Virus record (IMG/VR): IMGVR_UViG_3300048929_000143
Location: 1 to 63,715 of that record
Length of the DNA stretch: 63,715 bases
Direction: 5' to 3' (one strand)
Origin: a virus
Shown here: positions 4,902 through 25,790 of the stretch, piece by piece
How the letters are laid out: the number at the start of each line of letters is the position of its first letter
How positions within the stretch are numbered: the first letter of the stretch is position 1
The notes under the pieces: generated by a model
What the model was told of the DNA's origin: nothing
The model's input: only the letters and a program-made list of their open reading frames with translations
The model's database searches: none
Program-made: the position numbers and the translations under genes

Positions 4902-4942
4902 TTTGCTAGATTAGCGATGTCAATAAACAGGAGACTATAACG

Positions 4943-5425
4943 ATGGCCATTCAGAAACGCGCGGTGCCACGCCGCGAAGTAACCGATTCTCAGGGGAACA
5001 TTTACGCCGACGTCCGAGGTCTGGCGTTCTACGACCTGAACCAACTGGTCAGCCTTCATTACGACAACCTGGATAAACTGCTGACCCTGTGGGAGCATTA
5101 TCAGGAAGTGTCGGAACGCAAAGACCCAGGCGCGATGATGACTGACGCGGATTTCGCGGCGTTCATCGCCGATATCTGCGCCAGCGCCCCCGCCATTATG
5201 GCCGACGTCATCGCTATGGCTGCGGACGAACTGGGCGAAGACGGTCAGCCGGATACGGCGTCACTGGAAGAGATTCGCCGCTGGCCGATGCACATTCAGT
5301 GCCGAGCGCTTGGCCACATCTACGCTTTATCTGCAGATGACTTCGGTGGTCCGGTAAAGCTGATCGGAGCGCTGATCCAGCAGGTGAGACTGGCGGCTCC
5401 GAAACTGGGGATGATTCCAGCGTAA
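4943..5425 (+). CDS. Tail assembly chaperone (gpG-like)
   Basis: 160 aa acidic protein between the major tail and tape measure genes; AGGAG RBS. Confidence 0.65.
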   Translation: MAIQKRAVPRREVTDSQGNIYADVRGLAFYDLNQLVSLHYDNLDKLLTLWEHYQEVSERKDPGAMMTDADFAAFIADICASAPAIMADVIAMAADELGEDGQPDTASLEEIRRWPMHIQCRALGHIYALSADDFGGPVKLIGALIQQVRLAAPKLGMIPA

Positions 5426-5688
5426 CACCAGACCCGCGCCATGAAGCCGAGATATGGTTTTCCAACATTCGGGCGCATGTGGTCTACCTGCAAATGAACA
5501 ACGTCCCCGACGCAGACCGGCTCACGCTTGGCAAGTTAATAGGTACCGCCGAGATGGTACGGCGAATGAATAACCGCCAACTGGCCAGCGAAGGGATCGT
5601 GCTGCAAGCCGCCGCGTCGAGTATTATGACTAAAGAGGGCGGTAAGTTTTTCCAGAAAGTTATTAAGGGGCTTATGAGCAATGGCTGA
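5341..5688 (+). CDS. -1 frame extension of tail assembly chaperone (gpGT-like T segment)
   Basis: The -1 frame is open from 5341, overlapping the last 85 nt of the G-like ORF, and ends at 5688 just inside the tape measure start. A GGGG run at 5407-5410 is a possible slip site. Confidence 0.5.
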   Translation, partial: LRWSGKADRSADPAGETGGSETGDDSSVTPDPRHEAEIWFSNIRAHVVYLQMNNVPDADRLTLGKLIGTAEMVRRMNNRQLASEGIVLQAAASSIMTKEGGKFFQKVIKGLMSNG

Positions 5689-9814: not shown

Positions 9815-11520
9815 TGGCCGACAAAACAGTTAAGGGGACGCGCGACGCTAACAGTGTCGTGAAGACGATGTCTCAGACGATGAATAACGCCTGGCTGCTG
9901 TACGTGCAGGACACCTTCTCCGGTGCTGCAGCCAACACGTTATACCGCCTGTCGAAGTGGACGTACTTTGACGGCGGCGTCTATACGGTGCAAATGGCGG
10001 GCGACGATAAGGTAGAGATGTTCATCGACTCGTCGAAGGTCGGCGAATCCATTTACCCGAACGTGGCCACTTACGAATATGTGACGATTGATCAGGGGTG
10101 GCACCGTGTCGACGTGTCTTACACGAACGTACCGGCGAACACCCCATCCTATGCCGGATGGGCGTTCTATCGAGACGGCAACGTCGTAGCGGAGATCATT
10201 TCCGAGCCAGACGGCACGAAGGGCAACGATTCCGAATGGCCAGACATCGGACCGAAACCGGCGGGCAACGGGAGCAACATTCTCGGTCTGCCGGTATTCC
10301 TTCCGGAACCGAACTGGGGCGACGGCATCACCGAATCGTGGGCGTGGCTGTCGACTATCCAGACGTCGGAAACCGGAGCCGAGCAGCGCCGCAAGATTCG
10401 CCGTTTCCCGCGCCGGTACGTTGAAGCGCAGTTCCGCGGATTGAAGAATAAACGCCGGACGATCGAGATGGCCATTATCGGCCTTGGCCGCGACCAGTGC
10501 CTGATCCCGTTATGGTTCGACACCCAGTTTATCGAATGGAACCTGACCGAGAAAGAAACCGTCATTCACGGCGATTTCAATTACCGGAACTTCTACGCTG
10601 GCGGCGTGGCCATCCTCCGCAACATGGACCGGTCGAAGATTTTCGATTACGAACTGGTTCCGATTCTGGAGGTTCACGAAGACCGAATCGTTCTGGCCAC
10701 CGGACTGAAAAAGGACTGGTCGAACTTCCGTCTGTTCCCGTGTCGAGTCGCGGTGATCGATGACGCGGTTAACGCGGACAACTATACCAACGCTGCAGCA
10801 GACTTTCAGGTGCGCTTCCGCGTCATCACGGCCGAATCGTTTATCCAGCCGTCGTGGATTTTCAACGATGTCGGCTGGCCGCGTAACGGGCGCGACAACC
10901 TGCCGATCATCAACCAGCGCCCGAACTGGCGGGAGAACATTTCCCACTCGTTTGACCGCATCGTGTTCTGGACAGACAACCAGACGGGCATCCCGTTTGT
11001 CATGGACGCCGGAAACCAGGAGACGCAGGACTGGTCGCTGCCGTGGTTGCTGAAAGGGAAGAAGGAGAAGTTCACCTTCATCCAGATGCTGTATGCCATG
11101 GCAGGCCAGACGCAGCCGTTCTACGCGCCTAACTGGCTGGAAGATTTTACGCTGGTGGAAGACATCAATCCGGCTGACGGGTACATCGCCGTGGAGCAGA
11201 CCGGATACTCATACTATGCCGATCTTCTGCAGGAAATCCGCCGCAACCTGTACCTGGAAAAACGCGATGGAACGGTGCTCACTGCCCGCATAGTTAGTGC
11301 GCGCGCCGAGGACGGGGTCGAATATTTATACCTCGACCAGACCATCGGCTCTATCGCCAAAGAAGACATCCGAGTGTTATGCTTCATGCCATACTGCCGT
11401 TTAGGTTCAGACTCCGTGGAAATCACACACCACGCAGACCTGACTGGCGCGGCAGAATGTGTGCTGGCGCTACACGGATTTATCGAACGACGAGATGGAG
11501 CGCCAGCCGTATTCCCATAA
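9814..11520 (+). CDS. Distal tail protein: GTA g12-like core with N-terminal carbohydrate-binding-like extension
   Basis: 568 aa; ...SETGAEQRRKIRRFPRRYVE...IPLWFD resembles the G.E.R...R..PR motif of DUF2460/g12-type proteins (recalled). The first ~150 aa look like a PA14/CBM-type beta domain. Confidence 0.6.
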   Translation: MADKTVKGTRDANSVVKTMSQTMNNAWLLYVQDTFSGAAANTLYRLSKWTYFDGGVYTVQMAGDDKVEMFIDSSKVGESIYPNVATYEYVTIDQGWHRVDVSYTNVPANTPSYAGWAFYRDGNVVAEIISEPDGTKGNDSEWPDIGPKPAGNGSNILGLPVFLPEPNWGDGITESWAWLSTIQTSETGAEQRRKIRRFPRRYVEAQFRGLKNKRRTIEMAIIGLGRDQCLIPLWFDTQFIEWNLTEKETVIHGDFNYRNFYAGGVAILRNMDRSKIFDYELVPILEVHEDRIVLATGLKKDWSNFRLFPCRVAVIDDAVNADNYTNAAADFQVRFRVITAESFIQPSWIFNDVGWPRNGRDNLPIINQRPNWRENISHSFDRIVFWTDNQTGIPFVMDAGNQETQDWSLPWLLKGKKEKFTFIQMLYAMAGQTQPFYAPNWLEDFTLVEDINPADGYIAVEQTGYSYYADLLQEIRRNLYLEKRDGTVLTARIVSARAEDGVEYLYLDQTIGSIAKEDIRVLCFMPYCRLGSDSVEITHHADLTGAAECVLALHGFIERRDGAPAVFP

Positions 11521-11530
11521 GGAGAAGGCT

Positions 11531-12355
11531 ATGGCGTACAACGAGTATGAGGCGTCGACATTTAGTGGGCGCCCCATCCACCTTTACGAATTCACTATCG
11601 ACACAAAGGCATGGTACGTGACGTCCGCGGACAGCGATATTTCTGTCGGCGGACGTCTGTACAAAACCCTTGGCATTGAGGATGACGGCGTCAGCCAGAC
11701 CGGCGAAGCGCAGACGGACTCCTTCACCATCCGGTTGCCAATCACGTTCGACCTGGTATCCCTCTACGTCAACACCCCGCCAATCAATGATGTCCTGGTC
11801 AAACGTGCTCGCGTCCACGAGAACGACAACGAGCTGGCCTATAACTACGTCGGCTTCATCAATAACGTGAACTTCACGACCCCAGGCGTGGCCGAAATCA
11901 CCTGCCAGACGCTTGGTCCCACGATGCAACGAAACGGCCTGCGCCTGACGTGGCAGCGCGGCTGTCCTTACGTTCTGTACGACCAGACCACCTGTAAGGT
12001 AAATAAAGACGCGCACAAACTGACGACCACCGTTACGAACGCGCAGGGCGGTAAAATCACCGTAGCCGCGGACATCGCAGCGTTCGGGGACAACTACTTC
12101 ACCGCCGGATTCGTTGAGTGGGTAGACCGCCGGACAGGTGGCCCGAACCGTCGCGGCATCACGTCGCAGATTGGCAACACGATCACTTTGCTCGGCCGAA
12201 GCGATGGCATTGCGAACGGCGATCCGATATACATTTACCCAGGCTGCAATCGTGTCGCTCAGACCTGCAGCAGCAAATTTAACAACATGGCCAACTATGG
12301 CGGGGAACCGCACATTCCAGGCAAGTCGCCTTTCTCCGGCGACCCAATCTTCTAA
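11531..12355 (+). CDS. Tail protein, BR0599/DUF2163 family (GTA g13-like)
   Basis: ATG 11531 after AAGGAGAAGG. C-terminal YPGCNRVAQTCSSKFNNMANYGGEPHIPGKSPF matches the family's Cys-x-x-C...F.N..N(F/Y)GG signature. Confidence 0.75.
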   Translation: MAYNEYEASTFSGRPIHLYEFTIDTKAWYVTSADSDISVGGRLYKTLGIEDDGVSQTGEAQTDSFTIRLPITFDLVSLYVNTPPINDVLVKRARVHENDNELAYNYVGFINNVNFTTPGVAEITCQTLGPTMQRNGLRLTWQRGCPYVLYDQTTCKVNKDAHKLTTTVTNAQGGKITVAADIAAFGDNYFTAGFVEWVDRRTGGPNRRGITSQIGNTITLLGRSDGIANGDPIYIYPGCNRVAQTCSSKFNNMANYGGEPHIPGKSPFSGDPIF

Positions 12356-12365
12356 GGGGGGCAAG

Positions 12366-12608
12366 ATGGAACCGATGACGTGGGTAATGCTGGCGATGAT
12401 GGTGGCCAGTATGATTCTGTCGGTGGTGCTGGCGCCGAAACCAGCGCAGCCGCAGCCAGGCACCTATGATGATATGAACATCCCGCAGATTGACGAAGGT
12501 ACGCCGCAATCCGTCATCTTCGGCGAGGTGTGGATCTCCGACTGGTTCGTTCTGGCCACCGGCAATTTCCGCACGAAGAAAGTCAAAGCGAAAAACGCGA
12601 AAAAATAA
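12366..12608 (+). CDS. Tail assembly protein I-like (C-terminal-domain type)
   Basis: 80 aa; AAGGGGGG RBS. TM helix, then APKPAQP...EGTPQSVIFGEVWIS, like the end of lambda gpI / start of GTA g15 as I recall them. Confidence 0.55.
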   Translation: MEPMTWVMLAMMVASMILSVVLAPKPAQPQPGTYDDMNIPQIDEGTPQSVIFGEVWISDWFVLATGNFRTKKVKAKNAKK

Positions 12609-12617
12609 GGGGGCGTT

Positions 12618-12833
12618 ATGCTTATCACTGTCGAACATATCCGCGCCGCGCATCTCTGCGGCCGTGGACTGGTAAACCGCATGAAACGTGTTGGCATGAC
12701 CGACGAGGAAATCATGAACGCGCTGCAGAACGGGATGCCGGAAGAACAAGTCCGAGCCTATGGCGACGCGCAAATGAACGCCGTTATCGAACTGGCACAC
12801 CGAATGGAAGCGGAGAAGAAAGCCAATGGGTAA
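12618..12833 (+). CDS. Hypothetical small protein between I-like and J-like genes
   Basis: 71 aa; AAGGGGG RBS; ATGGGTAA overlap couples it to the J-like start. Confidence 0.5.
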   Translation: MLITVEHIRAAHLCGRGLVNRMKRVGMTDEEIMNALQNGMPEEQVRAYGDAQMNAVIELAHRMEAEKKANG

Positions 12834-15800
12834 GGCGAAGAACGTAACAGTCGGCTTTAAGTATTTAATGTCGATGCAAATGGGTATGTGCCGCGGGCCG
12901 GTAGACGCGCTGCTGGAGATTCGCGTGGGCGACCGTCAGGCGTGGTCGGGCGAGATGACCGGCAACACGAAGTTCAAGATCAGCAAAGGCGAACTGTTTG
13001 GCGGCACCAAAGCGGAAGGCGGCATAGACGGGGACGCCGAGTTCTACATGGGCGGCGCGACTCAGACCGTATCCGATAAGGTGAAGAGTATTCTGCCAGG
13101 CCTGTCGCCGGAGTTCAGGGGGATTGTGACCCTGTTCTTCGACGGCATGGTCTGCGCGATGAACCCATACCCGAAACCGTGGGCGTTCAAACTTCGCCGT
13201 CTGCTGCAGGGATGGGACGGTGGTGCTTGGTATCCGGCGAAGATCCGTATCGACCAGACCACCACGTACACCGATGATGACGGGCATACGCGCGTCGGCA
13301 CCATCCAGTCGATGAACGGCGTCCACATCCTGTACGAAGCGTGTACCAACCGTGTGTGGGGGCGTGGCATCCCGCGCTCGGCGATGTACGAAGCGCAATG
13401 GCAATACGCGGCAGACCTCGCTTACGAAGAAGGGATGGGGCTTTGCCTCGCGTGGAAACGAACCGACAACCTGGACTCTTTCGCGCAGAACATTCTTGAT
13501 CACCTCGGCGCCACGATGTACGTCGATAAACAGACCGGCCTGCTGACGATTAAACTGATCCGCGACGATTACGTGTTCGAACAGTTGCCGGTCTTCACGA
13601 ACGATTCTGGCCTCGTCGCGGTAGAGGAATGTTCGGTGGCCGCGGGTACCAGCCTGATTAACGAAATCGTGGTCGGCTATCACTCGCCGCTGTCGAACGA
13701 AGACGGGAAGGTGCGCTCGCAGAACCTTGCCGGTATCCAGACTGCAGGGTCAATCGTTTCCAGCAACGTGGACTACATGGGCGCGCCGACCGCCGAGCTG
13801 GCCCAACGACTCGCTGACCGTGACCTGAACGCGCAGGCGCTGCCACTTCGCGGCTTCAAAGTGAAGGTCGACCATCGCGGCTGGAAGATTCAGCCTGGTA
13901 CCGTCTTCCGCATCCAGGACCCGAAACGCGGGGGCATCGACATCGCCATTCGCGCCGGTGCTGTGGAAGAGATGCCGATCACCGACGGCTATCTGCATAT
14001 CTCTGCAGTCGAGGACGTCTTTGCTATGCCGGTAAACGGCACCGCTGCCGTCCAGCCGCCGGTAACTAACCCGCCTGACCGTTTGCCTGCCATTGCCCGA
14101 CGTCGTGCGTATGAGGTGCCGTATGCGCTGCTGAACCGCATGTATCCGCCTGGCGAGTTCAACGCCATCCAACCGCAATGGGGTTACTATGGCATGGCCG
14201 CAGAGAAGCCTACCGGTCTGTCGATGGGTTATGATCTGGCCATGCGCGCGGGCGGCGAGTCTTCTTTCGAAATCCGTGGCCAGGGCGGCTTCGTTCCGCT
14301 CGGCGAACTGATGGAAAACATCTCCTATCTGACGACGCTTATCAAAATCAATAAGCTGAAAGACGAAGACGAGATGGTGGCGGGCGAGTGTATCTATCTC
14401 GGCGAAGAAATCATGCGCGTGGACGCTATCGACGAAAGAGCCGGAGAGTTCTGGCTGACCGTTGCCCGCGGCGTTTATGACACGGTGCCGGCCCCACAAG
14501 CAGCCGGACAACTGGCGTGGTTCTTCGAAGACGAAGTCGGCTCGGATTCCGTGGCATACGTGGGCGGGGAGACGGTCGACGGTAAAGTTCTGCCGTATAC
14601 GCTCGCTGGCCGGTACCCACTGGAAGACGCACCCATCGACACCGTGAAGATGAACTTCCGCTTCTATCGCCCGTATGCCCCTGGATATGTATGGCTGAAC
14701 GACCAGTGGCGCTGGTATGTCAAAACATCGTTAAGCAAGAATGCTCCGGTACTGACTATCTCATGGAAACACCGCGATCGTGTGGCGCAGGAAGATACCC
14801 GCGTCGATCATGAAGTCGGGAACATTGGTCCGGAACCAGGCACTTCGTATGTCCTTCGTTTCTACAATGACCAGAACGTTCTCGTCCGTCAGGAAACCGG
14901 TATTACCGGCACGTCTTATCAGTACCTGTGGACGCAGGCGATGTCCGACCTTGGCGTGACCGAGCAGGATGATGGCCGCGTGTTCGACATGTACGCGACG
15001 CTGTTCACCCGCCGGAACAATTACGAATCCTGGCAGGGCTACCGGATGCAGATTCAGGTGGAGGACATTGCGACTTACCTGCAGATGGCTCAACTGGCGC
15101 AGCAGACTTCTATGAAGGTCAGCGACACCGATGGCGGGGAAGACGACTCAACGCCGACATACGGCCTGATGATGTCGTCCCTTGGCCAGCAGACCGCTAC
15201 CGACGTCGACGACAGCGATGGCAGCAACGTTCCGGCTGACGGTCTGGCCATGGCATCACTCGGTCAGGCAGCGAGCCAGATGACGCTGATGCCGGTTGTC
15301 ATGGATGCCACGCTGTTCGAAGCGCCGTACCTGGAACTGTACCGCCTGAACCTCAGCCTGAACAACTCCCGTCCGATGGGCGTGGTTGCCCGTACTTCTG
15401 ACCGCCTGACTGATGGCTATGAGTTCTGGTCATCGGCGCTGGACGTCACCTACGACGCCAAAGGCAATCCGATCTACACACCGAAGAACTGGCAGTCTTC
15501 CGGCTCCGGCGCGTTCACTCCGTGGGCTGTGACCACCAGCAAACTCGACTACCTGGATACGCAGGTGACGTTCGGCGCGACATCCGAACAAGACGGTGTT
15601 CCGCTGGAAGGGATTTCCGTTGGCGACCTTGCGCTGATCGATAAAGAGATTGTCCGCGTCGACTCTATCGGCAACGGATTCCTGGTTCTCGGCCGAGGCG
15701 TGGCAGACACTGTTCCGGCGGTACACTACACCAACACCCCGATCTGGTTCTTCCAGAAGAAAAACGCCATCTCCGGCTATGTCTACGGCGGCCAGGAATG

Positions 15801-16626
15801 GGTGGGCGTGAAACTGAAACCGGAAACCCACACTGTCCCGTATCCGCTCGATCAGGTACCGCAGACGAACATCCAGATGAAGACGCGACCGGTCCGGCCG
15901 TATGCTCCAGGTGACGTGTTCATCGCTAACAATCGCTGGTGGGTACCGGCGCAGGCGTACACGGTTGACAGTCAGGGCATCTACCACGCGCGCGACGTCA
16001 ACATTTCGTGGAAACACCGCGACCGTCTGTCTCAGGCGGGTGACGCGATTGACCACATGGCCGGTAACATTGGTCCGGAGCCTGGCGTTAAGTACCGCGT
16101 TTGGGTCGGGTATGTGCTGCCGAACAGCAAAGGTGGCGCGGACAAGATTACCCTGCGTCAGTACGACGTCGACGGTACCGGCTTCACGTACACTGCGGCC
16201 ATGGCGGAAGCCGACGGCGCGAAAGCGGGGCCGGTGTTCAAAGCCTGCGGCAACGTGTCGATCATGATGACGCTGTTCGCGGTTAACCCAAGTGGTTTAG
16301 AATCATGGCAGGGGTACTCGTTCTACGTCGGCGTCCCGACAAACGCCTGCGCACCTGGACAACAACCTGGTGGCGGCAATCAGCCTGGCGGTGGTTCAGG
16401 TGGCGGAAGCGGGGGCGGCAATCCTGGTGATCCAGGTGGTCCTAACGAGCCAGACCCGACTGACCCGACAACGCCAGACCCGACTGACCCAGTAGATCCA
16501 GACTGGCCGCCGGAGATTCCGCCTATCATCGTTGACCCGCCGGAGCCGCCAGACCCTGACTTCGAAGGCTCATGGTCATACGACTGGGATCATGGTTGGG
16601 CTAACACTCTGCCAAAAACGCTTTAA
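12826..16626 (+). CDS. Tail tip / host specificity protein (lambda J / GTA g15-like)
   Basis: 1266 aa; starts MGKAKN... like J (MGKGSSKG...), then ...MGMCRGPVDALLEIRVGD. Internal ~200-aa duplicated module; Gly/Pro-rich C-terminus. Confidence 0.85.
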   Translation: MGKAKNVTVGFKYLMSMQMGMCRGPVDALLEIRVGDRQAWSGEMTGNTKFKISKGELFGGTKAEGGIDGDAEFYMGGATQTVSDKVKSILPGLSPEFRGIVTLFFDGMVCAMNPYPKPWAFKLRRLLQGWDGGAWYPAKIRIDQTTTYTDDDGHTRVGTIQSMNGVHILYEACTNRVWGRGIPRSAMYEAQWQYAADLAYEEGMGLCLAWKRTDNLDSFAQNILDHLGATMYVDKQTGLLTIKLIRDDYVFEQLPVFTNDSGLVAVEECSVAAGTSLINEIVVGYHSPLSNEDGKVRSQNLAGIQTAGSIVSSNVDYMGAPTAELAQRLADRDLNAQALPLRGFKVKVDHRGWKIQPGTVFRIQDPKRGGIDIAIRAGAVEEMPITDGYLHISAVEDVFAMPVNGTAAVQPPVTNPPDRLPAIARRRAYEVPYALLNRMYPPGEFNAIQPQWGYYGMAAEKPTGLSMGYDLAMRAGGESSFEIRGQGGFVPLGELMENISYLTTLIKINKLKDEDEMVAGECIYLGEEIMRVDAIDERAGEFWLTVARGVYDTVPAPQAAGQLAWFFEDEVGSDSVAYVGGETVDGKVLPYTLAGRYPLEDAPIDTVKMNFRFYRPYAPGYVWLNDQWRWYVKTSLSKNAPVLTISWKHRDRVAQEDTRVDHEVGNIGPEPGTSYVLRFYNDQNVLVRQETGITGTSYQYLWTQAMSDLGVTEQDDGRVFDMYATLFTRRNNYESWQGYRMQIQVEDIATYLQMAQLAQQTSMKVSDTDGGEDDSTPTYGLMMSSLGQQTATDVDDSDGSNVPADGLAMASLGQAASQMTLMPVVMDATLFEAPYLELYRLNLSLNNSRPMGVVARTSDRLTDGYEFWSSALDVTYDAKGNPIYTPKNWQSSGSGAFTPWAVTTSKLDYLDTQVTFGATSEQDGVPLEGISVGDLALIDKEIVRVDSIGNGFLVLGRGVADTVPAVHYTNTPIWFFQKKNAISGYVYGGQEWVGVKLKPETHTVPYPLDQVPQTNIQMKTRPVRPYAPGDVFIANNRWWVPAQAYTVDSQGIYHARDVNISWKHRDRLSQAGDAIDHMAGNIGPEPGVKYRVWVGYVLPNSKGGADKITLRQYDVDGTGFTYTAAMAEADGAKAGPVFKACGNVSIMMTLFAVNPSGLESWQGYSFYVGVPTNACAPGQQPGGGNQPGGGSGGGSGGGNPGDPGGPNEPDPTDPTTPDPTDPVDPDWPPEIPPIIVDPPEPPDPDFEGSWSYDWDHGWANTLPKTL

Positions 16627-16637
16627 GGAGAATCAAT

Positions 16638-17363
16638 ATGCCAGCAGTTACCGCGCCCCGTTTCGGGGTGCTGTACGGTTGGGCTGCAGGGGAAGACTTT
16701 TGGGGCGGTCCGATGAACCAGAACATGGTTCTGATGGACGCCCTGATTAACCCTTACATCCTGAACATGAACTTCGGGTCGCCGCCTCAGAACGTTGAGG
16801 ATGGCGATCAGTACATTGTGGCCACGCCATCTTCCGGTGACTGGGCTAACCAGGACGGCAAACTCGCCTACCGCATCGGTGGCCAGTGGGTATTCTTTGA
16901 GCCGACGCGTGGTGTGCGCGCCCGACTGGTCAACATCAACGCGTGGATCTGGTATGACGGCGTTCAGTGGGTCGACGAGACTACCGGCCAAACCCCGGGA
17001 ACTGACCCAGGCGTACTCCCGCTCTATTACGATATCGGCGGCACCGTTCCGTATTCCGTGGAAGGGAATGAGTGGATCATGTTCCTGCCGCTGGTGCAGG
17101 CGGTGTCCCTGCCAAAGAACGCCGTGGGAAGTTCATTCAGGCTGGTGGCCGGTATTCAGGGGTACGTCGAACTGGCGCTGTACCGAAATGCCACGAAGGT
17201 CGGACGCATTATGATCCCTGCTGGCTCGACCACCGGCCAGTTCGATATTCCGAGTCCGGTATCATTCGGCGCGGGCGACATCTTCGCTATTCAAGCGCCT
17301 GCTGATATCATCGCAGGATTCAAGAACTTCGGTTGGGCGTTTCGCCTGAACATCGTGACGTGA
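16638..17363 (+). CDS. DUF2793-like tail-associated protein
   Basis: 241 aa; ...NQNMVLMDALI...PPQNVEDGDQYIVA...GDWANQDGKLAYRIGGQWVFFEP fits the DUF2793 pattern (recalled); GGAG RBS. Confidence 0.6.
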   Translation: MPAVTAPRFGVLYGWAAGEDFWGGPMNQNMVLMDALINPYILNMNFGSPPQNVEDGDQYIVATPSSGDWANQDGKLAYRIGGQWVFFEPTRGVRARLVNINAWIWYDGVQWVDETTGQTPGTDPGVLPLYYDIGGTVPYSVEGNEWIMFLPLVQAVSLPKNAVGSSFRLVAGIQGYVELALYRNATKVGRIMIPAGSTTGQFDIPSPVSFGAGDIFAIQAPADIIAGFKNFGWAFRLNIVT

Positions 17364-17371
17364 GGTAGCAC

Positions 17372-18313
17372 ATGCCATTCATTGATGGATTCGAACAATT
17401 CGACAAAGCAGAGAATCCGGCGGCAGAGATGCGGTTGGCCGACTACACCATTTTGGGGAACGTGGTGACAGGGACCGGCCGCAAGGGAGGTCGTTCGCTC
17501 GTCTGCGCCAGCAGTTCCGTATCCCGCGCATGGCCATGGACGGGCGACCGCTTTGCCGTGGGCTTCGCGTTTCAGTTCGACAAAAGGGGCGCGCTGATCC
17601 AGTTCAACAACGGGGCGACAATGGCTCTCAGCACGACTACCGGCCGCCCGTACTTCGTTGGCGGTGCTGTCGGCAATGCCGGCCCTGTGAAGAATCGCTG
17701 GTACTACTGCGAGATCGAGTTACGCCGGAATGCGCGCCAGATGGTTGTCTGGTTTAACGGCCGTCAGGATTTCGTGGCCACCATGCCGGAAGAACTGGCC
17801 AGCGCGAACGTCGTTACCTGCCGCCTCAATCCGTGGAACGCGGTGACAGATGATGTCGGCTCAACGAAGAACTACGACGACTTCTACATGAACAATGGCG
17901 CGCGCATCCAGCCGATGCAGATCGTGACGCGCTTCCCGACCAAAGACGAAACGCCAAACGAGTGGGCGCCGTCCACCAGTCCAACGGCCGCACACTGGGC
18001 GATGGTTGGTCCGCTGCCGACGGATAAACTTGACCGGTACCTGATCGGCAACGTGACGGGCGCGGAAGAATCCTTCACCTCGTCGCAGACTTTGCCGGAT
18101 ACTAATAACGTTCTGGCGCTCGGTCTGGTATCGTTAGTCCGTAAAACGACTGTCGACAACCTGACCCTGACAATGAAATTCGGTGGCCGCAACGTCCCGA
18201 ACACGGATATCCCGATGGACTGGAAGTATCGGTACTCGGACGTGCCGGTGCAGGGCGACACCTCAGAGTCCATCTTAGCCGAGAAGTTCGGCGCAGTGCT
18301 GAACAGGAGTTAA
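17372..18313 (+). CDS. Paralog 1 of 5: jelly-roll (LamG-like) tail-associated protein
   Basis: 313 aa; MPFIDGFEQF..., WYYCEIEL..MVVWFNG, YDDFYMNN, RFPTKDETPNEWAP, LVSLVRKTTVDN; GAGGT RBS. Confidence 0.7.
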   Translation: MPFIDGFEQFDKAENPAAEMRLADYTILGNVVTGTGRKGGRSLVCASSSVSRAWPWTGDRFAVGFAFQFDKRGALIQFNNGATMALSTTTGRPYFVGGAVGNAGPVKNRWYYCEIELRRNARQMVVWFNGRQDFVATMPEELASANVVTCRLNPWNAVTDDVGSTKNYDDFYMNNGARIQPMQIVTRFPTKDETPNEWAPSTSPTAAHWAMVGPLPTDKLDRYLIGNVTGAEESFTSSQTLPDTNNVLALGLVSLVRKTTVDNLTLTMKFGGRNVPNTDIPMDWKYRYSDVPVQGDTSESILAEKFGAVLNRS

Positions 18314-18316
18314 CCC

Positions 18317-19285
18317 ATGCTGATCCATATGGACGGTTTCGAACAATTTTCAAACATGACGCTGTCGCAGGTGGCCGTTGAACTTCCGGCGGCCGGATAC
18401 ACGATTGCGAACACGGTGGCCATTAGCAACGGCCGCAATAGCGATACCAAAGCAGTCATGCTCGGCACGTCTAACGTAGGCGGCTCCATCAAACGCGCTT
18501 TCGTGTCTACGGCGCCGCTGACGGTTATCGGCTTTGCCTACATGGCCGAGACGCAACGTGATGACATCGTAGCCATTGCAAACGGATTCACCCTGCAGTG
18601 GCCAGATAAGATTCAGATCAACGGCGCGAAGGGGACGGTCACGCCGGTACTGGGCGTCTGGTATTACTATGAACTGGTCATCGACAAAGACCAGAACCAG
18701 ATTCAGGTCTGGATTAACAATGTTCTCGACCTGACGGTACCGCTGCCCGCCGCGATGACTGGACTAACCACCTTTGACTGTACGTGGGCGGCTCCGGTTA
18801 AAAGCGTGAAGCGCCTGGATGACATCTTCGTGCTGAACAACGGGTCTGGCGGTGCGCCGGTCAGCCGTGTTGGTCCGCAGGCCATTACGATGCGTCTGCC
18901 TACCAGCGACTTCGTGAAAGAGTGGAGTCCGGCTACCGGCGATGATCACTTTGCCATGGTGGATAACCTGCCTCCGACGGAAACCGAATTCATCAAGTCT
19001 TCCGTTAGCGGGGCGCAGGATCTGTTCAAGTCCGGCGCGACAGCCGGTACCGGAACTATCACGGCAGTCGGCGTCGTCGTGCGCGCCCGTAAGAACGACA
19101 TTGATGCCCGCCAGATGGGCGTGGTTGTCGGTCCGAAAGGTTCGACGCAGAAAGAGAACCTGGTAACGACGCTGGACGTCACACCGAAATACTTTTACTC
19201 GTTTTTCCCGCAGGCACCTGGTAATGTGGCGTGGGACAACACTAACCTGCAGGACACCCCATTCGGTGTCGTCGTCAGACCGTAA
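18317..19285 (+). CDS. Paralog 2 of 5
   Basis: 322 aa; ..HMDGFEQF, WYYYELVID..IQVWINN, LDDIFVLNN, RLPTSDFVKEWSP, VVVRARKNDIDAR, TPFGVVVRP; AGGAG RBS. Confidence 0.7.
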   Translation: MLIHMDGFEQFSNMTLSQVAVELPAAGYTIANTVAISNGRNSDTKAVMLGTSNVGGSIKRAFVSTAPLTVIGFAYMAETQRDDIVAIANGFTLQWPDKIQINGAKGTVTPVLGVWYYYELVIDKDQNQIQVWINNVLDLTVPLPAAMTGLTTFDCTWAAPVKSVKRLDDIFVLNNGSGGAPVSRVGPQAITMRLPTSDFVKEWSPATGDDHFAMVDNLPPTETEFIKSSVSGAQDLFKSGATAGTGTITAVGVVVRARKNDIDARQMGVVVGPKGSTQKENLVTTLDVTPKYFYSFFPQAPGNVAWDNTNLQDTPFGVVVRP

Positions 19286-19298
19286 CAGGAGATAAATC

Positions 19299-20333
19299 AT
19301 GCTTATGTGGATTGATGGTTTCGACCATTACACTGCCGTTGGCCAGACCGGTACCGTCGTCCAGAAGTACCTGGAAGCGGCGAACTACACCGTGCGTAAC
19401 CCAACCTCTACCACCCTGGCTATCGTTGACGGCCGCATCACTGGCCAGCGCGCCCTGCAGTTCTCGGTACCGGCCAGTTCGTCTACCGTGCCGTCTCTGT
19501 CGTGGGGTTACACTCCGGCGGTCGGGGCTACGAAGATTGTCTTCGGTTTCGCCATTAAGGCTACCGGCGCGCGTATGCGTGTCTGCCGTATCGAAGGCGG
19601 TGTTCTGGATCTCGACTGGGACGCCACGACCGGTAAGCTGAAAGTCGGTTCTACCCTGGGCGCGGCCGTTCTGATCCTGAACGCGTGGTACTTCATTGAA
19701 GTCGTGCTGGACACGCAGGCCAACACCATCACGGTGTACGCGAACGATGAACTGCAGTTAACCGTGCCGATGACTACCGCGCCGTCCAATCCGGTGACAA
19801 TCACCTGGGGGCAGACCGCTACTCAGACCGCCGCTGGCGTCCAGGTAATCGACGACCTGTATGTGCTGGACAACCAGACCGGTACCCGAATCGACCGCCT
19901 TGGTCCTTGCTCCGTGAACACGCGCTTCCCGACTGCAGACATCACGACGCAGTGGACGATTGTTCCGAATGGCGCGTCGCCGGCCCCGACCAATCATTAC
20001 GAAGTGGCCGCGCAGCTTGCACCGCTGGAAACGAACAAGCCGTACCTGCAGTCCAACGTCAATGGCAACACCGACGAGTTCCGTTCTAACGCCGTGCTGC
20101 CGAACAGCAACACGATCTACGGAGTGGGGCTGGTGGCGCTGGCGCGTAAAGGCGATCTGGATGACCGTAAACTCGGCCTTAAACTGACAGTCAACAGCAC
20201 TAGCGACGAGAAGCAGTTGTCGTTGATCGAGTCGAACAAGTATCTGCAGACTACCTACGAAACCCCTCCAGGTGGCGGTACGTGGTCACAGAACGCCGTT
20301 GAATCGGCAACCTTCGGCATCGTGACGCGCTAA
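19299..20333 (+). CDS. Paralog 3 of 5
   Basis: 344 aa; ..WIDGFDHY, WYFIEVVLD..ITVYAND, IDDLYVLDN, RFPTADITTQWT, LVALARKGDLDDR, ATFGIVTR; AGGAG RBS. Confidence 0.7.
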   Translation: MLMWIDGFDHYTAVGQTGTVVQKYLEAANYTVRNPTSTTLAIVDGRITGQRALQFSVPASSSTVPSLSWGYTPAVGATKIVFGFAIKATGARMRVCRIEGGVLDLDWDATTGKLKVGSTLGAAVLILNAWYFIEVVLDTQANTITVYANDELQLTVPMTTAPSNPVTITWGQTATQTAAGVQVIDDLYVLDNQTGTRIDRLGPCSVNTRFPTADITTQWTIVPNGASPAPTNHYEVAAQLAPLETNKPYLQSNVNGNTDEFRSNAVLPNSNTIYGVGLVALARKGDLDDRKLGLKLTVNSTSDEKQLSLIESNKYLQTTYETPPGGGTWSQNAVESATFGIVTR

Positions 20334-20342
20334 GGAGACACC

Positions 20343-21527
20343 ATGTCCGTATTACACGTGGACGGCTTTACTACCCTTGCTCGGCAGACTATCGCTTTCC
20401 CTAACGCCGTAACGACGGCGTTGGGGCAGGCGTCGCTTCTGTATAAGGCGGGCTGGCTTCCCTACAGCATCATTAACGGGACGTCGGCGGCATTCACGAA
20501 CACGCAGGCAATCATCCAGGCAGATCCGGTCTTTGCTACCCGCAACAAATTGAACCTGCGTAAAAACTCGTCCACGGCTTTTACCTGGCTGAGTGTGCTT
20601 ATGCAGGCAATCGAAACGACGCCGTATGACAAGTTTGTCATCGGCTTCATGTGCCAGTTTGTCCCGGCGGTATCCAGTGCGACGACCGGCCCATCCATTT
20701 GCGTATTCGACGGCTCAATGGTCACTGCGCCGCCAGCGAACTCAACGTCTACGCCTCCAGGTCTTCTCTGCCGGTTCTTCCTTCCAACTGACGGCGTGAC
20801 GTCTGGCATCGCGTATAGCGCGGCGGGAACGGAAACGGCGACGTCCGACCAACTGAAAGCGAACACCGACATCCACTTCGAAATCCTGGTGGAAACGGAC
20901 GTGCAGCGCTTGAGGGCATACGCTAACGGAATCCTCGTCCTGGATATCGCCTACACCGGCACGTTCAAAACGAAGAACGGTTTCGGAGTAGGCATGTGGA
21001 CTGGGAGCAACGCGAACAACGGCAACGGCGCCCACGACATGATCTTCTCAAACATGTACGTGCTTGGCGTTGATGCGGTTCATACCGGCGTTCTTGGTCC
21101 GGGCGCGCGCGTGCTGGAAGTCGCCCCGCAGACAGATTTCGCCGTGCAGTGGGATCGCCCCCTCGCCTATGCGTCAAACGCCGCTGTTCTGCAGCAGACG
21201 AATGACGTGACCAGTCCGGCCTACCTTACTGCCGGTTCGGCGGCCACCGACCTTTACGTGGGTCCGGATGCGGTAGCGGCAAACGCGGCTACGGTATACG
21301 GCGTTGCAGTAAAAGCCTACGGGATGACCATGGCCGACGGGACACATACGCTAACTGCTGCCACCCAGTATGACGGCACCAACGGGCAGAGTACGAAGAC
21401 CGGAACTCTCGTTCTCAGCACGATGACCAATTACGTGTTCGACGTTTCTCTGAACCCTAAAACCGGTTTAAAGTGGACGCCGAGCGAAGTGACCGCATCC
21501 GCAATGGGTATCAAACTTTTAAATTAA
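20343..21527 (+). CDS. Paralog 4 of 5 (more divergent)
   Basis: 394 aa; ..LHVDGFTTL, HFEILVE..LRAYANG, APQTDFAVQWDRP; AAGGAG RBS. Confidence 0.65.
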   Translation: MSVLHVDGFTTLARQTIAFPNAVTTALGQASLLYKAGWLPYSIINGTSAAFTNTQAIIQADPVFATRNKLNLRKNSSTAFTWLSVLMQAIETTPYDKFVIGFMCQFVPAVSSATTGPSICVFDGSMVTAPPANSTSTPPGLLCRFFLPTDGVTSGIAYSAAGTETATSDQLKANTDIHFEILVETDVQRLRAYANGILVLDIAYTGTFKTKNGFGVGMWTGSNANNGNGAHDMIFSNMYVLGVDAVHTGVLGPGARVLEVAPQTDFAVQWDRPLAYASNAAVLQQTNDVTSPAYLTAGSAATDLYVGPDAVAANAATVYGVAVKAYGMTMADGTHTLTAATQYDGTNGQSTKTGTLVLSTMTNYVFDVSLNPKTGLKWTPSEVTASAMGIKLLN

Positions 21528-21536
21528 GGGGCTACC

Positions 21537-22637
21537 GTGGGCGTCTATAAGATGGAAAACTTTAACGTGCCGGACATCGCGTCTCTTAATACGCGGGGTC
21601 TTAGCATCCCTGCGGATAATGGATTTGCGACAACGCAGATCGTCACGATGTCCGATACTACTCCAGCCGGAACGACCATTAACCGTCGCGGCCTTCGTAT
21701 CACCTACACCATCGGCAGTTCAGGAGGCAGTGGCCAGCTTTATGGATTGCCATTCCCTGCCAATGGTGAGGGGTATATGTCGTTTCGCCTGCGCGTTAAC
21801 AACAATGGCAGCGCCCGCATGGTGGCGTTTCGTCTGAACATGATTGCTGCAGCTACTAACGGCGTTAACACGACGTTCTGGTACATGAATAGCAACCTAT
21901 TCGGGCCAACCAGCAATGGCCAGCAGACTTCCGCGCAACCGGCGACGTTCAATTTCGCCTACGACAAGTTCTACACCGTCGAGATTTATCGATCGGCAAC
22001 CGGCGCGTACAAAGTATGGCTCGACGACTTCTTGCTGCAGGCACCCGCAGGGACATCGATCGTCACTCCAGCAACGGCAGGATTCCTGTACCTCCTTGTC
22101 AGCAACGTGACTACGGTATCCCCTCCACCGGCCATTACCGTGGACATGCTGGATTTCGTCTCCGTCGACCTTAGTAACCCAGGTCTGCAGTATCGCCCTG
22201 GAAGAACGAGCCGTATTCTTCCTGTGGCGGCAACGGCAGACGTGATTACGGAATGGACGGGAGGCGACGGCACCGCCCATTACAGCCAGCTATCCGATTT
22301 CACGAACACGGTCAATGCCACCGGATATATCACGGCCAATGTTGTCGGTAAGCGCGAGCAGTATCAGCAGGGCGGTGTCCTGGCTGGCTTTGAATCGCTG
22401 CAGCAGGTATTGTCTGTGGGGGCGGAATCCTATCTCGGAAACTTCGGCGGGGCATCACATACCCTGACCACCGAAGCGAACTTCGGGGCCGGCACCGTTT
22501 CAACAGGGGACATCATGCTGGCGCCGACCGGTTCCTATGTTTATCGCCCTCTGTATCTTGATAAAAAACCTGACGGAAGTAACTGGACGATCGCAGACCT
22601 GTCTACCGTGAAGACCGGTTTCTCCATTAAATCGTAG
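21537..22637 (+). CDS. Paralog 5 of 5 (most divergent)
   Basis: 366 aa; GTG start 6 nt after AAGGGG; FYTVEIYRS..YKVWLDD, AATADVITEWTG; same length class and position. Confidence 0.6.
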   Translation: MGVYKMENFNVPDIASLNTRGLSIPADNGFATTQIVTMSDTTPAGTTINRRGLRITYTIGSSGGSGQLYGLPFPANGEGYMSFRLRVNNNGSARMVAFRLNMIAAATNGVNTTFWYMNSNLFGPTSNGQQTSAQPATFNFAYDKFYTVEIYRSATGAYKVWLDDFLLQAPAGTSIVTPATAGFLYLLVSNVTTVSPPPAITVDMLDFVSVDLSNPGLQYRPGRTSRILPVAATADVITEWTGGDGTAHYSQLSDFTNTVNATGYITANVVGKREQYQQGGVLAGFESLQQVLSVGAESYLGNFGGASHTLTTEANFGAGTVSTGDIMLAPTGSYVYRPLYLDKKPDGSNWTIADLSTVKTGFSIKS

Positions 22638-22646
22638 GGATCGCAG

Positions 22647-24764
22647 ATGGCCGAAGATATTAACGTCGCCAGTTACCGGCTGGTGGCGCTGACGTATAAA
22701 GGGGGCGGGGTAGATATTAACGGCGCGGTCCAGTCATCGCGCCTGGCTCTTATTTATTCTGACGCACCTAACTTCCGCATGGCGAGCTATCGTCTCGTTG
22801 CGCTGACGGCCGCCACCCGAAATCCGGATCTGAAAGCCGTCGTGTCCACCGAACGCGTGGGCTTAGTATATCTTGACGCCCCGACTTTCCGGATGGCTTC
22901 GTATCGCCTCACCGCCCTGACCGCCAGTACCCGGACCCCTGATTTTGTCGGACTCGTCCAGTCTTCCAGGTTAGGATTCATCATCCGGCCGCCAGCGGGC
23001 TTCGTGTCTACCGGCCGCCTGGCGTTCATCATTAATCAGGTGGAAACCGGACCGGCCGCATACGTGCCGCAGACGGTGCAGCAAGTCCACCAGCAGACCG
23101 CATTCCCTTCGACTGCCGATACAATCTCCACGACCCGCGCCGTGCAGGTAGTCCAGCGCGCCATCCAGCAAATCATTGCCCCGATGCCGTGGTCACAGAC
23201 GCGCGTGATGTCGGAAACCCTGCAGGTCGTGCAGCAGGCGGCGTACACGCCGCCGCAAAGCCTGATTAGCGCGATGTCCGAAGTAATGCAGGTTCTGCAG
23301 TCGGATATTCACCAGCACGTTCCGGTGTCGATGGACTACGTGATGCACAACGCTATGCAGGTGCTGCAGTCCGCCCCGCTGCCTATCTGGCAGTCTCCGC
23401 ATTACGCGCTGTCGCTGGCGCAGTGGGAGCTTTACCGCACTCCGATGGGCTTCCTGCCTCGCTCGACCACCACGGCGTACCACACGTCGCTGAAAGTCCT
23501 GCAGCAGACCGAAATGGGTTACATGCCGTGGTCAGATACCGACGTCAGCCAGGTGGCCATGAAGACCCTGTTCGACTACACGTCCCCGCTGCCGGATCAG
23601 GGTACAGACGAGGTGTATCAGGAAGTCATGGTGGCGCTGCAGCACACCGACGGCGAGCCGCTTATCGTTGGTCCTAACCTTGTTGGCCAGAACGCCATGC
23701 AGGTTGTCCAGTCTACGCCGCTGCCGGTGTGGCAGTCCGACACCCGCGCGCTGACCCTTGCGGAAATGGTGCTGCAGGAAGCGCTGTACGATCCGCCGTC
23801 CGACATTGGCAAGACCAACGCCATGCAGTCGGTCATGAAAGTGGCCATTGAGGACAAGGACTACGCGAACCCCGACATCATGCAGTCGCAGACCGTCGTG
23901 CCGCAGATGGCCATGAAGGCGTTGCAGTCCGCCCCGCTTCCTATCTGGACGTCTCCGGCCATTGTTCCGCAGGCGCACCTGGAATGGCTGCAGTGGACGA
24001 GCTACCCGTCTCCTGGCGATATGATCCCGCCGGTTAACGCCGCGCTGGCTTCTCAACTGGGAATCCAGACCCTGCAGCATTCCGATGTGGAACATCCGCA
24101 GTCGACTACTCGCGCCCTGCAGATGGCGCAACTGACATCGCAATACCTGTTCTACACTCCGGCGTCCGACCTCGCTGAAAAAGGGATTTTTATCGGACAA
24201 ATGGTGGAAGCGGTAGCAAGAAATGCGGTGTATCCTGATCCTGCTGAACCGATTTCACCCGTTTATTCCGACCAGATTTCCGTGATGACCGCATATACCG
24301 ACGACACGTATCCGGACCCGACAAAAGAAGCGCAGCCAGGTGAAGCGTTCCAGGTTGTCGAAACCATCGCGTCCGAAGTGGAATACCCTGATCCTGCAGT
24401 TAGCCCGGTGTGGGCGGAAGTAACGCAAGCAGTGGTACAAAAAGCAACCAGCGATACTTTCCCTGACCCGACGGTTCCGGTATCATCCGTGACCCTAACT
24501 CAAATTTCTATTCAGGCTTCCACCAGTGCCGATTATCCAGATCCGGCGAACCTGGTATCACCTGCAGAAGTTAGTCAGGCAATTACGCAGGTGTCCAAAG
24601 CTACATCGTTCCCGAATCCAGCTAATCCGGCTTCCACTCTAACTGTCGATATGGCGTTGCAGATGGTTGCACTACCAGACCCAACGCTGTATGGGGTACC
24701 AGATTATGCGATTAAACACCGTCCAATCATTACAATCAGCATCGTGTACATTCAAACGTCTTGA
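22647..24764 (+). CDS. Internally repetitive structural (fibre-like?) protein
   Basis: 705 aa with three repeat classes: 3 x ~38 aa (ASYRL.ALT...), several MQV(L/V)QS.PLP.W.S units, and 6 x (Y/F)P(D/N)P units. Confidence 0.7.
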   Translation: MAEDINVASYRLVALTYKGGGVDINGAVQSSRLALIYSDAPNFRMASYRLVALTAATRNPDLKAVVSTERVGLVYLDAPTFRMASYRLTALTASTRTPDFVGLVQSSRLGFIIRPPAGFVSTGRLAFIINQVETGPAAYVPQTVQQVHQQTAFPSTADTISTTRAVQVVQRAIQQIIAPMPWSQTRVMSETLQVVQQAAYTPPQSLISAMSEVMQVLQSDIHQHVPVSMDYVMHNAMQVLQSAPLPIWQSPHYALSLAQWELYRTPMGFLPRSTTTAYHTSLKVLQQTEMGYMPWSDTDVSQVAMKTLFDYTSPLPDQGTDEVYQEVMVALQHTDGEPLIVGPNLVGQNAMQVVQSTPLPVWQSDTRALTLAEMVLQEALYDPPSDIGKTNAMQSVMKVAIEDKDYANPDIMQSQTVVPQMAMKALQSAPLPIWTSPAIVPQAHLEWLQWTSYPSPGDMIPPVNAALASQLGIQTLQHSDVEHPQSTTRALQMAQLTSQYLFYTPASDLAEKGIFIGQMVEAVARNAVYPDPAEPISPVYSDQISVMTAYTDDTYPDPTKEAQPGEAFQVVETIASEVEYPDPAVSPVWAEVTQAVVQKATSDTFPDPTVPVSSVTLTQISIQASTSADYPDPANLVSPAEVSQAITQVSKATSFPNPANPASTLTVDMALQMVALPDPTLYGVPDYAIKHRPIITISIVYIQTS

Positions 24765-24810: not shown

Positions 24811-25089
24811 GTGAGCGACATTCCAGCGGGGGGTGCGCGCGAAAAAGTGAACTGGATTTCGTTAATCGGTGTCGTGGTTACGATTCTCAGTTTAGGCGCG
24901 GCGGGGCTGCAGTATATCGGCACCGTCAACGCTAAAGCGGATTTCGCGCTCGCGCAGATCTCAGAAATGAAAACGCAGCAGCGACAGTCTTCGGCAGATA
25001 CGCGAGATGACCTTAAAAGCATCAACGCTAAACTGGATAACCTTATCCTGACTGTCGGCCGAAATGGGACAACTAACGGGAAATACTAA
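24811..25089 (+). CDS. Single-TM membrane protein, holin candidate
   Basis: GTG 24811 after AGGGGGG; 92 aa with one TM (WISLIGVVVTILSLGAAGL) and a charged coiled tail; TAATG overlap with the next gene. Confidence 0.45.
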   Translation: MSDIPAGGAREKVNWISLIGVVVTILSLGAAGLQYIGTVNAKADFALAQISEMKTQQRQSSADTRDDLKSINAKLDNLILTVGRNGTTNGKY

Positions 25090-25790
25090 TGGCTAAAAAC
25101 TTACCGCGCGGGGTGAGAAACAATAACCCTGGGAACATTGAATGGGGATCACCATGGCAGGGCTTAGTCCCTGCGAGTCAGAAGACCGACCCACGATTCG
25201 CACAATTCGTTGACCCTGTCAGCGGCATCCGTGCAATCGCGGTGACGTTGATCACGTACTACGACAAGCGCAAGGCTAACGACGGCAGCAAGATTGACTC
25301 GGTACGCGAGGTGATCGAGCGCTGGGCGCCAGCCAAGGAAAACAACGTCACTGCTTACGCCAAGCAAGTGGCCGCGCTCCTGAACGTCGACCCGAACGCC
25401 GAAATCCTGAACATGCACGATTACAATACGCTGCGCGGGCTGGTGGAAGGCATCATTCGCCATGAAAACGGGAACGGTCCTCTGTCGAACGGAAATTCCT
25501 GGTACAAAGACGATGTCATCCAGGAAGCGCTGCGCCGTGCCGGTGTCGTGCCTTCCGAGAAGAAAGTCGTCACCACTACCACCGTGGCCGCGACAGCGAC
25601 TGCAGGTGTGGCCATCGACCAACTGGCGGGCGTTATCCCGCAGGTCACAGCGGCGATCAACAACAGCCGTGACGACCTGACCTCCGGAGACTGGATGCGC
25701 ATCACCATCGGCGTCGTAATGGTGGGGGCGGCCGTCGCGCTGGCGTACTCCCACTGGCGTCGTCAGAAACTGTCCACGGCCGAGGCTTGA
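25089..25790 (+). CDS. Endolysin candidate (RNNNPGNI-motif family) with C-terminal TM anchor
   Basis: 233 aa; N-terminal GVRNNNPGNIEWG...RWAP..ENN motif family; C-terminal WMRITIGVVMVGAAVALAYSHW; sits between the holin-like and spanin genes. Confidence 0.5.
   Translation: MAKNLPRGVRNNNPGNIEWGSPWQGLVPASQKTDPRFAQFVDPVSGIRAIAVTLITYYDKRKANDGSKIDSVREVIERWAPAKENNVTAYAKQVAALLNVDPNAEILNMHDYNTLRGLVEGIIRHENGNGPLSNGNSWYKDDVIQEALRRAGVVPSEKKVVTTTTVAATATAGVAIDQLAGVIPQVTAAINNSRDDLTSGDWMRITIGVVMVGAAVALAYSHWRRQKLSTAEA

Follow-up and report, generated by a model that had tools for sequence, protein, structure and literature searches.

In a 63,715-nt viral sequence (IMG/VR record IMGVR_UViG_3300048929_000143; this whole stretch is called the window below), we investigated five consecutive genes, p1 to p5, that occupy positions 17372-22637 (Table 1), and found that they encode old, maintained paralogues, for which a lectin-type jelly roll is predicted from structural models of p3 and p4. 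The window is the complete genome of a Chi-like flagellotropic siphophage of the Casjensviridae. The array is the gp32-gp35 locus of phage Chi plus one extra member, and is not peculiar to this genome. With moderate confidence, we read the five proteins as peripheral tail-tip adhesins, made up of a fixed trio (p1-p3) and two exchangeable specificity modules (p4 and p5). An earlier inspection of the letters of the window, called here the sequence-only reading, had picked out the array and proposed that it holds jelly-roll paralogues of a tail module or a host-range cassette.

The positions, common strand and spacing (gaps of 3-13 nt) that the sequence-only reading gave for the five open reading frames (ORFs) were exact, the gaps from p1 to p5 being 3, 13, 9 and 9 nt. 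It had also given each gene an AGGAG-type ribosome-binding site, which is found in its canonical form ahead of p2, p3 and p4, with GAGG ahead of p1 and AGGGG ahead of p5. The start of p5 is ambiguous, as translation could begin at a GTG at 21537 (366 aa) or at an ATG at 21552 (361 aa, the JGI gene call). The motifs that it listed are loose consensus strings and only loosely right. Searched as literal patterns, the N-terminal DGF motif was observed in four of the five proteins (p5 has MENF), RxPTxD only in p1-p3, DD(F/I/L)(Y/F)(V/M)(L/N)N only in p1 and p2, and ARKxDxD and FG(V/I)V only in p2 and p3. The central W(Y/F)(Y/F) pattern as written, with its spacing two residues off, was observed in none.

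The claim that these are five old, maintained duplicates was borne out when all five proteins were aligned with one another. By BLASTP, p1, p2 and p3 match each other over their full length with ~30% identity (E = 2e-26, 1e-19 and 2e-39), while p4 and p5 had no significant match to any sibling (E = 0.4-7). The latter two were joined to the others by profile-profile comparison, using family alignments built from database homologues (44 for p4, 12 for p5, and 58 for p2). With hhalign, the p4 family matched the p5 family at 95.5% over 344 columns, the full length (E = 1.4e-8), and the p1-3 family at 94.9% (E = 4.7e-8), and the p5 family matched the p1-3 family at 97.2% (E = 4.3e-11). Cross-matches of the family hidden Markov models (HMMs) link p4 and p5 to p1-3 through Chi gp34, Chi gp35, AchV4_0026 of Achromobacter phage vB_AchrS_AchV4 (AchV4), and metagenomic intermediates (L016 and L022), with Chi gp35 matched by the p4-family HMM at E = 1e-13 and Chi gp34 by the p5-family HMM at E = 6e-10. 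The predicted fold common to the p3 and p4 models, described below, agrees with this. p1, p2 and p3 correspond one-to-one to Chi gp32, gp33 and gp34 (by BLASTP, E = 2.5e-51 for p1 against gp32 and 2.5e-75 for p2 against gp33), and p4 matches gp35. An assembly artefact or a recent duplication is ruled out by the ~30% identity between copies, the one-to-one Chi orthologues, and the closed genome.

The guess of a jelly roll was supported by structure prediction. The AlphaFold2 models of p3 (predicted local distance difference test, pLDDT, 91.4; predicted template-modelling score, pTM, 0.90) and p4 (pLDDT 91.9, pTM 0.89) are both all-beta with two domains. The p3 model has an N-terminal jelly roll at residues 1 to ~191 and a C-terminal beta domain at 213-344, and the p4 model has a large N-terminal sandwich at residues 1 to ~243. 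In both, a loop then leads to a C-terminal beta domain of ~130 residues that finishes in a short helix and a final strand. A Foldseek search of the PDB with the p3 model gave 170 matches at E ≤ 1e-3, and the best matches of its N-terminal ~200 residues were ConA/LamG-type jelly rolls (E = 5e-7 to 1e-4), including BoNT/NTNH HCN, sialidase CBM40, the GH43 AbnA CBM, PL7, GH131, and a legume lectin. The LamG-like fold that had been proposed was therefore seen for the N-terminal domain of p3, and a weak profile match to NTNHA in the PDB (E = 0.07-0.12) agrees with it. The matches to the ConA/LamG lectins themselves (BoNT/NTNHA HCN, CBM40 and the GH43 AbnA CBM; E = 5e-7 to 3e-5) have template-modelling (TM) scores of 0.5-0.6, normalised to single-domain targets. 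The array proteins differ from these lectins in having only 8-18% sequence identity to them, no Pfam Laminin_G or CBM match, and an extra C-terminal beta domain for which no counterpart was identified among them.

Sequence searches did not place the proteins in a described family. In Pfam-A, p1-p4 had no match at E ≤ 0.1, LamG and CBM families included, and a sub-threshold match of p5 to DUF4124 (E = 0.032) was dismissed as noise. Searches of NCBIfam found no family match for the array proteins, and sequence searches of the PDB gave no family assignment. Phage structures were also absent from the top 50 PDB Foldseek matches of the p3 model, so no solved homologue can be used to place the proteins in the virion. 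Among viral predicted structures (BFVD), the p3 and p4 models match the same proteins across both domains, with TM scores of up to 0.86, and the p4 model matches p1/p2-type proteins at E = 7e-14 to 2e-15. These structural matches come from Serratia JS26, Providencia Kokobel1/Stilesk, Cronobacter JC01, Achromobacter AchV4/Motura, Proteus Saba, Sphingomonas Kharn, Roseovarius sp. 217 phage 1, and Vibrio VpV262, and runs of near-consecutive accessions among them suggest that some phages have several family members.

The p1-3 type is a large stand-alone protein family. Scanning 1.84 billion cluster representatives (50% identity clusters) with a p1-3 profile in HMMER returned 12,904 clusters at E ≤ 1e-3 and 6,638 at E ≤ 1e-10, and most of the 150 best matches listed are ~310-350 aa long and aligned from residue 2-3 to the end. 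By tblastn, relatives of p3 were found in 165 phage records, typically at three places in each. The phrog_2448 HMM matches p1, p2 and p3 over their full length (E = 5e-63, 4e-79 and 5.5e-93). p4 and p5 have no direct match to it; p4 matches phrog_10924 (E = 1.8e-10), and p5 has no PHROG match. Neither of these PHROGs has an annotated function, and the homologues carry 'hypothetical' or spurious names in GenBank. The sequence-only reading had not recognised the array as a described module, and with no Pfam, NCBIfam or PDB relative this stands for the accessible literature, where we found no description of it under Chivirus paralogues, gp33-35, or LamG tail-tip paralogues; the Hardy 2020 supplements do not mention YSD1_30 to YSD1_35.

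The family is also present outside the Casjensviridae, in a 71-kb contig with four tandem members and in other contigs with one or two. In the former (L049, IMGVR_UViG_3300023281_001121), the members lie at 5605-9711, between head genes (major head protein phrog_334 and structural protein phrog_399) and large tail proteins, in a genome that does not belong to the Chi-like type and whose appearance is N4-like or podovirus-like; the family thus forms tandem arrays beyond the Casjensviridae as well. Some database names of relatives need caution. Chi gp34 orthologues in Salmonella phages 35, sal3 and HMD-P1 are called 'putative short transient receptor potential channel 6 isoform X1', and Salmonella phage 35 also has a truncated relative (250 aa) named 'Histone-lysine N-methyltransferase'; both names are evidently spurious. 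Chi-type gp34 orthologues were likewise observed in records named for Gram-positive hosts, such as OR844949 ('Enterococcus phage Efm 3-10'), OR849445 ('Listeria phage LM 4-14-1'), and OR850005 and GU169904 ('Staphylococcus phage'). Their identity to p3 is 50.7%, practically that of the Salmonella Chi-like phages, and the host names probably reflect contamination or mislabelling.

Chi-like phages are the textbook flagellotropic phages, and the locus is conserved in every one examined. Homologues of Chi gp32-gp35 (YSD1_31 to YSD1_34) occur in more than 160 sequenced Chi-like phages, and the window and Chi are alike in synteny, with the array following the gp30 and gp31 types and preceding the gp36 type; the Chi order is gp30 (hub/fibre), gp31 (DUF2793), gp32, gp33, gp34, gp35, gp36. 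Chi has four members, whereas the window has five; pEp_SNUABM_08, Cronobacter JC01 and Serratia JS26 are the only isolates in which p5 and the five-gene form were found. We found no functional study of Chi gp32-gp35 in the accessible literature.

ORFs were classified in 47 IMG/VR loci plus reference phages, and across these ~50 Casjensviridae loci an invariant order was observed: the J-like gene, the DUF2793 gene, the three conserved members, then one or two genes (376-740 aa) in a variable slot, and a p6-like gene. A p6-like gene follows the array in nearly all loci, and a virion transglycosylase-like gene comes next in most loci long enough to show it. One clade (L021, L026-L033, L041, L043, L046 and L047; 61-68 kb) has its own features. 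Its J-like protein is encoded as three ORFs (~340, 600 and 810 aa), and its second member is ~625-680 aa long, with a ~265-aa insertion after the first ~65 residues. Its slot-4 protein is usually ~710-740 aa, with a ~335-aa insertion before the last strand, while the form in L030 has 411 aa. A fusion of p4 and p5 as the origin of the 710-740-aa proteins was ruled out, as each is a single member with that insertion.

To place the array within the evolution of the tail module, we compared the window with its relatives. Among isolates, the nearest is Erwinia phage pEp_SNUABM_08 (Gwanakrovirus), whose nucleotide sequence is 84-86% identical across most of the tail module; one IMG/VR contig (L004) is nearer, with 88% over the whole region. 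Amino acid identity to pEp_SNUABM_08 is 85% for TMP, 87% for DTP, 91% for BH1P, 90% for the hub, and 90% for the DUF2793 protein, and remains at 90% for p1 (gp31), 87% for p2 (gp32), and 93% for p3 (gp33). It then falls to 42% for p4 and 33% for p5, and is 69% for p6 (gp36) and 93% for the next virion protein. Collinear nucleotide homology runs from 3376 to 20351 and returns at 22977, inside p6; the break at 20351 is the p3/p4 border, within 9 nt of the p4 start codon. A second close relative (L006) behaves in the same way, and across both relatives the tail background, p1-p3 included, is 85-93% identical, p4 42-43%, and p5 30-33%.

Two distant relatives show the converse. In L054 and L055, the hub, DUF2793 protein and p1-p3 are overall 36-54% identical to those of the window (hub 43%, p1 36%). 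Despite this background, p5 of L054 is 81% identical and p4 of L055 is 84% identical. The nucleotide block in common with L054 extends over 21023-23044 (p5, flanked by the end of p4 and by the opening ~130 codons of p6), and that in common with L055 over 19440-21598 (p3 and p4). Against Chi, p1-p3 are 33-51% identical, and DTP, BH1P and BH2P 35-45%; of the tail-tip proteins compared, p3 is the best conserved, with 51% identity to gp34. On these comparisons, p1-p3 co-evolve with the tail-tip core, and p4 and p5 have been exchanged independently of each other between distantly related phages. This combination is the usual signature of receptor-specificity modules. The 'host-range cassette' of the sequence-only reading thus fits p4 and p5 but not p1-p3, whose identity follows that of the core. 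In p6, the first ~110-130 codons (22647-23044) diverge or are exchanged along with p4 and p5, and the remainder tracks the genome backbone, which suggests that the N-terminus of p6 contacts p5 or that recombination junctions lie within p6.

The case for presence in the virion comes from the published proteome of one homologous phage, AchV4 (Casjensviridae). Its gp25 and gp26 are 'virion structural proteins' (PMC7996906) that occupy the same slot after the J-like and DUF2793 genes. In liquid chromatography-tandem mass spectrometry (LC-MS/MS) of purified virions, AchV4_0025 was detected with 22 peptides (75% coverage) and AchV4_0026 with 14 peptides (35.5% coverage; PMC7996906 Table 1). Both are family members (HMM E = 7e-95 and 1e-25). 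AchV4_0025 is the nearest AchV4 relative of p2, and AchV4_0026 aligns by Foldseek with the p3 model at a TM score of 0.82 and with the p4 model at 0.70. They are the only family members for which we found published virion incorporation. AchV4 differs from the window in that only one of its members is of the p1-3 type, the other two being divergent, and in that its J-like protein is short (888 aa). A strict link between the array and a long C-terminal extension of the J-like protein was ruled out, as AchV4 has three members with a short one.

Two known systems offer parallels for the slot. In roseophage R4C and RcGTA, where a megatron protein carries three trimeric lectin-footed fibres (PMC10276861), homologues are found of the two genes upstream of the array, and the likeness in proposed function lies in carbohydrate-binding modules around a C3 hub. 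R4C is described with 12 structural protein components, and those named include no such array (PMC10276861); its lectin modules are domains inside the hub, megatron and fibre proteins, whereas the lectin folds of the array are separate proteins. Klebsiella phage PIN2 (Yonseivirus) is related but not flagellotropic, with no long fibre and immotile hosts (PMC12264135). It has the tail module in common with the window as far as the N-terminal portion of the DUF2793 gene but lacks the array and p6, and no family members were found in PIN2. After the DUF2793 gene, PIN1 and PIN2 instead encode an unrelated single protein of 851 aa, the 'tail spike' of the authors, which was detected in virions (PMC12264135) and is hypervariable between close relatives. 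A virion protein standing in the place of the array suggests that the slot is an exchangeable adsorption module.

Under the adhesin reading, p1-p5 would be peripheral subunits of the tail tip that each combine an N-terminal lectin jelly roll with a C-terminal beta domain; their genes sit in the late tail operon after those of the hub/central fibre and the DUF2793 side fibre. The long fibre would first carry the phage down the flagellum, after which the tip subunits would bind a cell-surface carbohydrate or another envelope ligand. p1, p2 and p3 would form a fixed trio co-evolving with the hub, as a scaffold or constant adhesin, while p4 and p5, possibly with the p6 N-terminus, would act as plug-in specificity modules for the cell-surface ligand. 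Recombination would swap these modules among phages and so retarget the host. We infer the tail-tip location, the ligand binding, and the division of labour between trio and variable pair from the evidence above, whereas the synteny, the paralogy, the mosaic exchange, the fold and the size of the family were shown in the present analysis.

Several observations weigh against this reading. In AchV4 virions, the third member, AchV4_0027, and the p6-like AchV4_0028 were undetected (PMC7996906), and LC-MS/MS of pEp_SNUABM_08 found 12 virion proteins that include gp29 and gp30 (the DUF2793 orthologue, 5 peptides) but not gp31-36 (PMC8310351 Table 2), so that the proposed tail-module membership is supported by the two AchV4 homologues and opposed by this list. 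No PDB chain matches the family in sequence searches, though Chi gp30 was deposited as 8VJH_A, and a paper on another phage describes the Chi tip as being without large appendages (PMC12724387). The blocks in common with L054 and L055 are only ~70-73% identical at the nucleotide level, which implies that the exchanges are old or that the protein similarity was kept by selection. The jelly-roll fold also serves enzymes (PL7, GH131, GH16-like) and purely structural proteins. The pEp_SNUABM_08 list is probably incomplete, since gp26, which aligns with the BH1P-like ORF of the window and is presumably a hub protein, is also missing from it.

The missing proteins in both proteomes and the lack of a PDB chain also speak for array products that are morphogenetic factors not retained in the virion, such as scaffolds or chaperones that fold or attach the long central fibre or the tip complex. 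We consider this unlikely, given the coverage of AchV4_0025 and AchV4_0026 in purified virions. Chaperones are usually small and single rather than five two-domain lectin-fold proteins of 35-43 kDa, and parts that contact a receptor typically show the kind of independent exchange seen in p4 and p5, yet fibre-specific chaperones do co-vary with fibre tips. Less probable still is that the long (~200 nm) fibre that wraps around the flagellum is itself built from these proteins in series, by stacking or polymerisation beyond the J-like C-terminus. Immunogold labelling identified the fibre as YSD1_29 (cited in PMC12264135), the shape of the p3 and p4 models is compact and globular, with two domains (pTM ~0.9), and not that of fibrous repeats, AchV4 combines three members with its short J-like protein, and family members are also found in N4-like, podovirus-type and other contigs. 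Flexibility did, however, prevent the C-terminal part of YSD1_29/Chi BH2P from being resolved (PMC12264135), so that the structural view of the fibre is a partial one, and the array co-occurs with flagellotropic Chi-like phages and is absent from PIN2, which was reported without a long fibre. Equally improbable to us is that the virion carries them as enzymes that degrade glycans, with the jelly roll acting as a lyase or hydrolase to clear capsule, lipopolysaccharide or flagellar glycans. The Foldseek matches do include PL7 alginate lyase, PL7A glucuronan lyase and GH131, and the equivalent PIN2 slot holds the 'tail spike' of its authors. Homology to a non-structural enzyme family, which would have spoken against a tail module, was not found in Pfam or NCBIfam, even at E = 0.1, and the domains that match best in fold bind without catalysing (BoNT/NTNH HCN, CBM40 and the GH43 CBM). 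The assembly-factor, long-fibre and glycanase alternatives each fit fewer observations than the adhesin reading.

The neighbouring genes are included in Table 1. The sequence-only reading placed the array straight after J-like and DUF2793-like genes, and both assignments are supported by Pfam, PHROG and PDB matches. The J-like protein matches PDB chain 8VJH_A (the Chi 'minor tail protein') over its full length by phmmer (E = 0, 1022 bits), as well as 8rk3_o (a J-domain protein; 1e-126), Pfam Phage-tail_3, and phrog_6284 (tail). The DUF2793 protein matches its Pfam family at 9e-22, phrog_7049 (tail fiber), and PDB 8gtc_S at E = 2e-6; only this gene, and none of p1-p5, has the DUF2793 and 8gtc_S similarity. 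Chain S of 8gtc, misleadingly deposited as 'Ribonuclease III', is the tail fibre protein of roseophage R4C, present in nine copies as three trimers on the megatron protein and ending in a lectin-like foot (PMC10276861), and the match ties Chi gp31-type proteins to the RcGTA/R4C side-fibre class. The array thus follows two known adsorption components of the C3 tail tip. Downstream, p6 had no Pfam or PDB match, and the transglycosylase-like product is likely a virion-borne cell-wall hydrolase, with 106 peptides of its pEp_SNUABM_08 orthologue, gp38, found in virions (PMC8310351).

Table 1. Positions in the window of the array genes and their neighbours.
Feature	Position	Strand	Length	Remarks
J-like baseplate hub 2 / central tail-fibre protein	12826-16626	+	1266 aa	orthologue of Chi gp30, YSD1_29
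DUF2793 short side-fibre protein	16638-17363	+	241 aa	orthologue of Chi gp31
p1, conserved member 1	17372-18313	+	313 aa	orthologue of Chi gp32
p2, conserved member 2	18317-19285	+	322 aa	orthologue of Chi gp33
p3, conserved member 3	19299-20333	+	344 aa	orthologue of Chi gp34
p4, variable-slot member, exchangeable module	20343-21527	+	394 aa	distant orthologue of Chi gp35
p5, second variable-slot member, exchangeable module	21537-22637	+	366 aa from GTG	no Chi orthologue
p6	22647-24764	+	705 aa	orthologue of Chi gp36; not a family member; phrog_7226, no annotated function
Virion transglycosylase-like protein	25089-25790		233 aa	endolysin and transglycosylase PHROGs (phrog_873, 9e-72)

A 127-bp exact direct repeat at positions 1-127 and 63589-63715 of the window indicates a circularly closed assembly with a genome of 63,588 bp, in line with the 63.6 kb of the sequence-only reading. 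The array occupies ~8% of this genome, and no tRNA genes were found in the window.

GenBank has listed the genes themselves as 'hypothetical proteins' ever since the Chi genome, and lectin-type accessory adhesins and swappable host-range modules are known kinds of phage part. What is new is the recognition of a paralogous lectin-fold module, of which we found no such description in the accessible literature; the module is a well-populated variant of these kinds and not a new category, and the five-gene array is a variant of the four-gene Chi form. As the family is large and has no Pfam model, assigning it a function would give an annotation to thousands of 'hypothetical' phage proteins. Reviews still regard the passage from flagellum to surface receptor, and the host-range determinants of Chi-like phages, as open (PMC9266447). 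The lectin fold and the independent exchange of the last two members make these proteins candidates for host-range engineering and for focused cryo-electron microscopy and mass spectrometry. A bolder version, which we hold as a rather doubtful possibility, is that the family is a major unrecognised class of modular adhesins, in which the trio of Chi-like phages would form a hetero-oligomeric lectin collar on the C3 tip or the DUF2793 fibres and carry combinatorially swappable plug-in p4 and p5 proteins that would set the secondary-receptor step after flagellar capture. If this were true, p4 and p5 would be the long-sought determinants of the cell-body receptor step.

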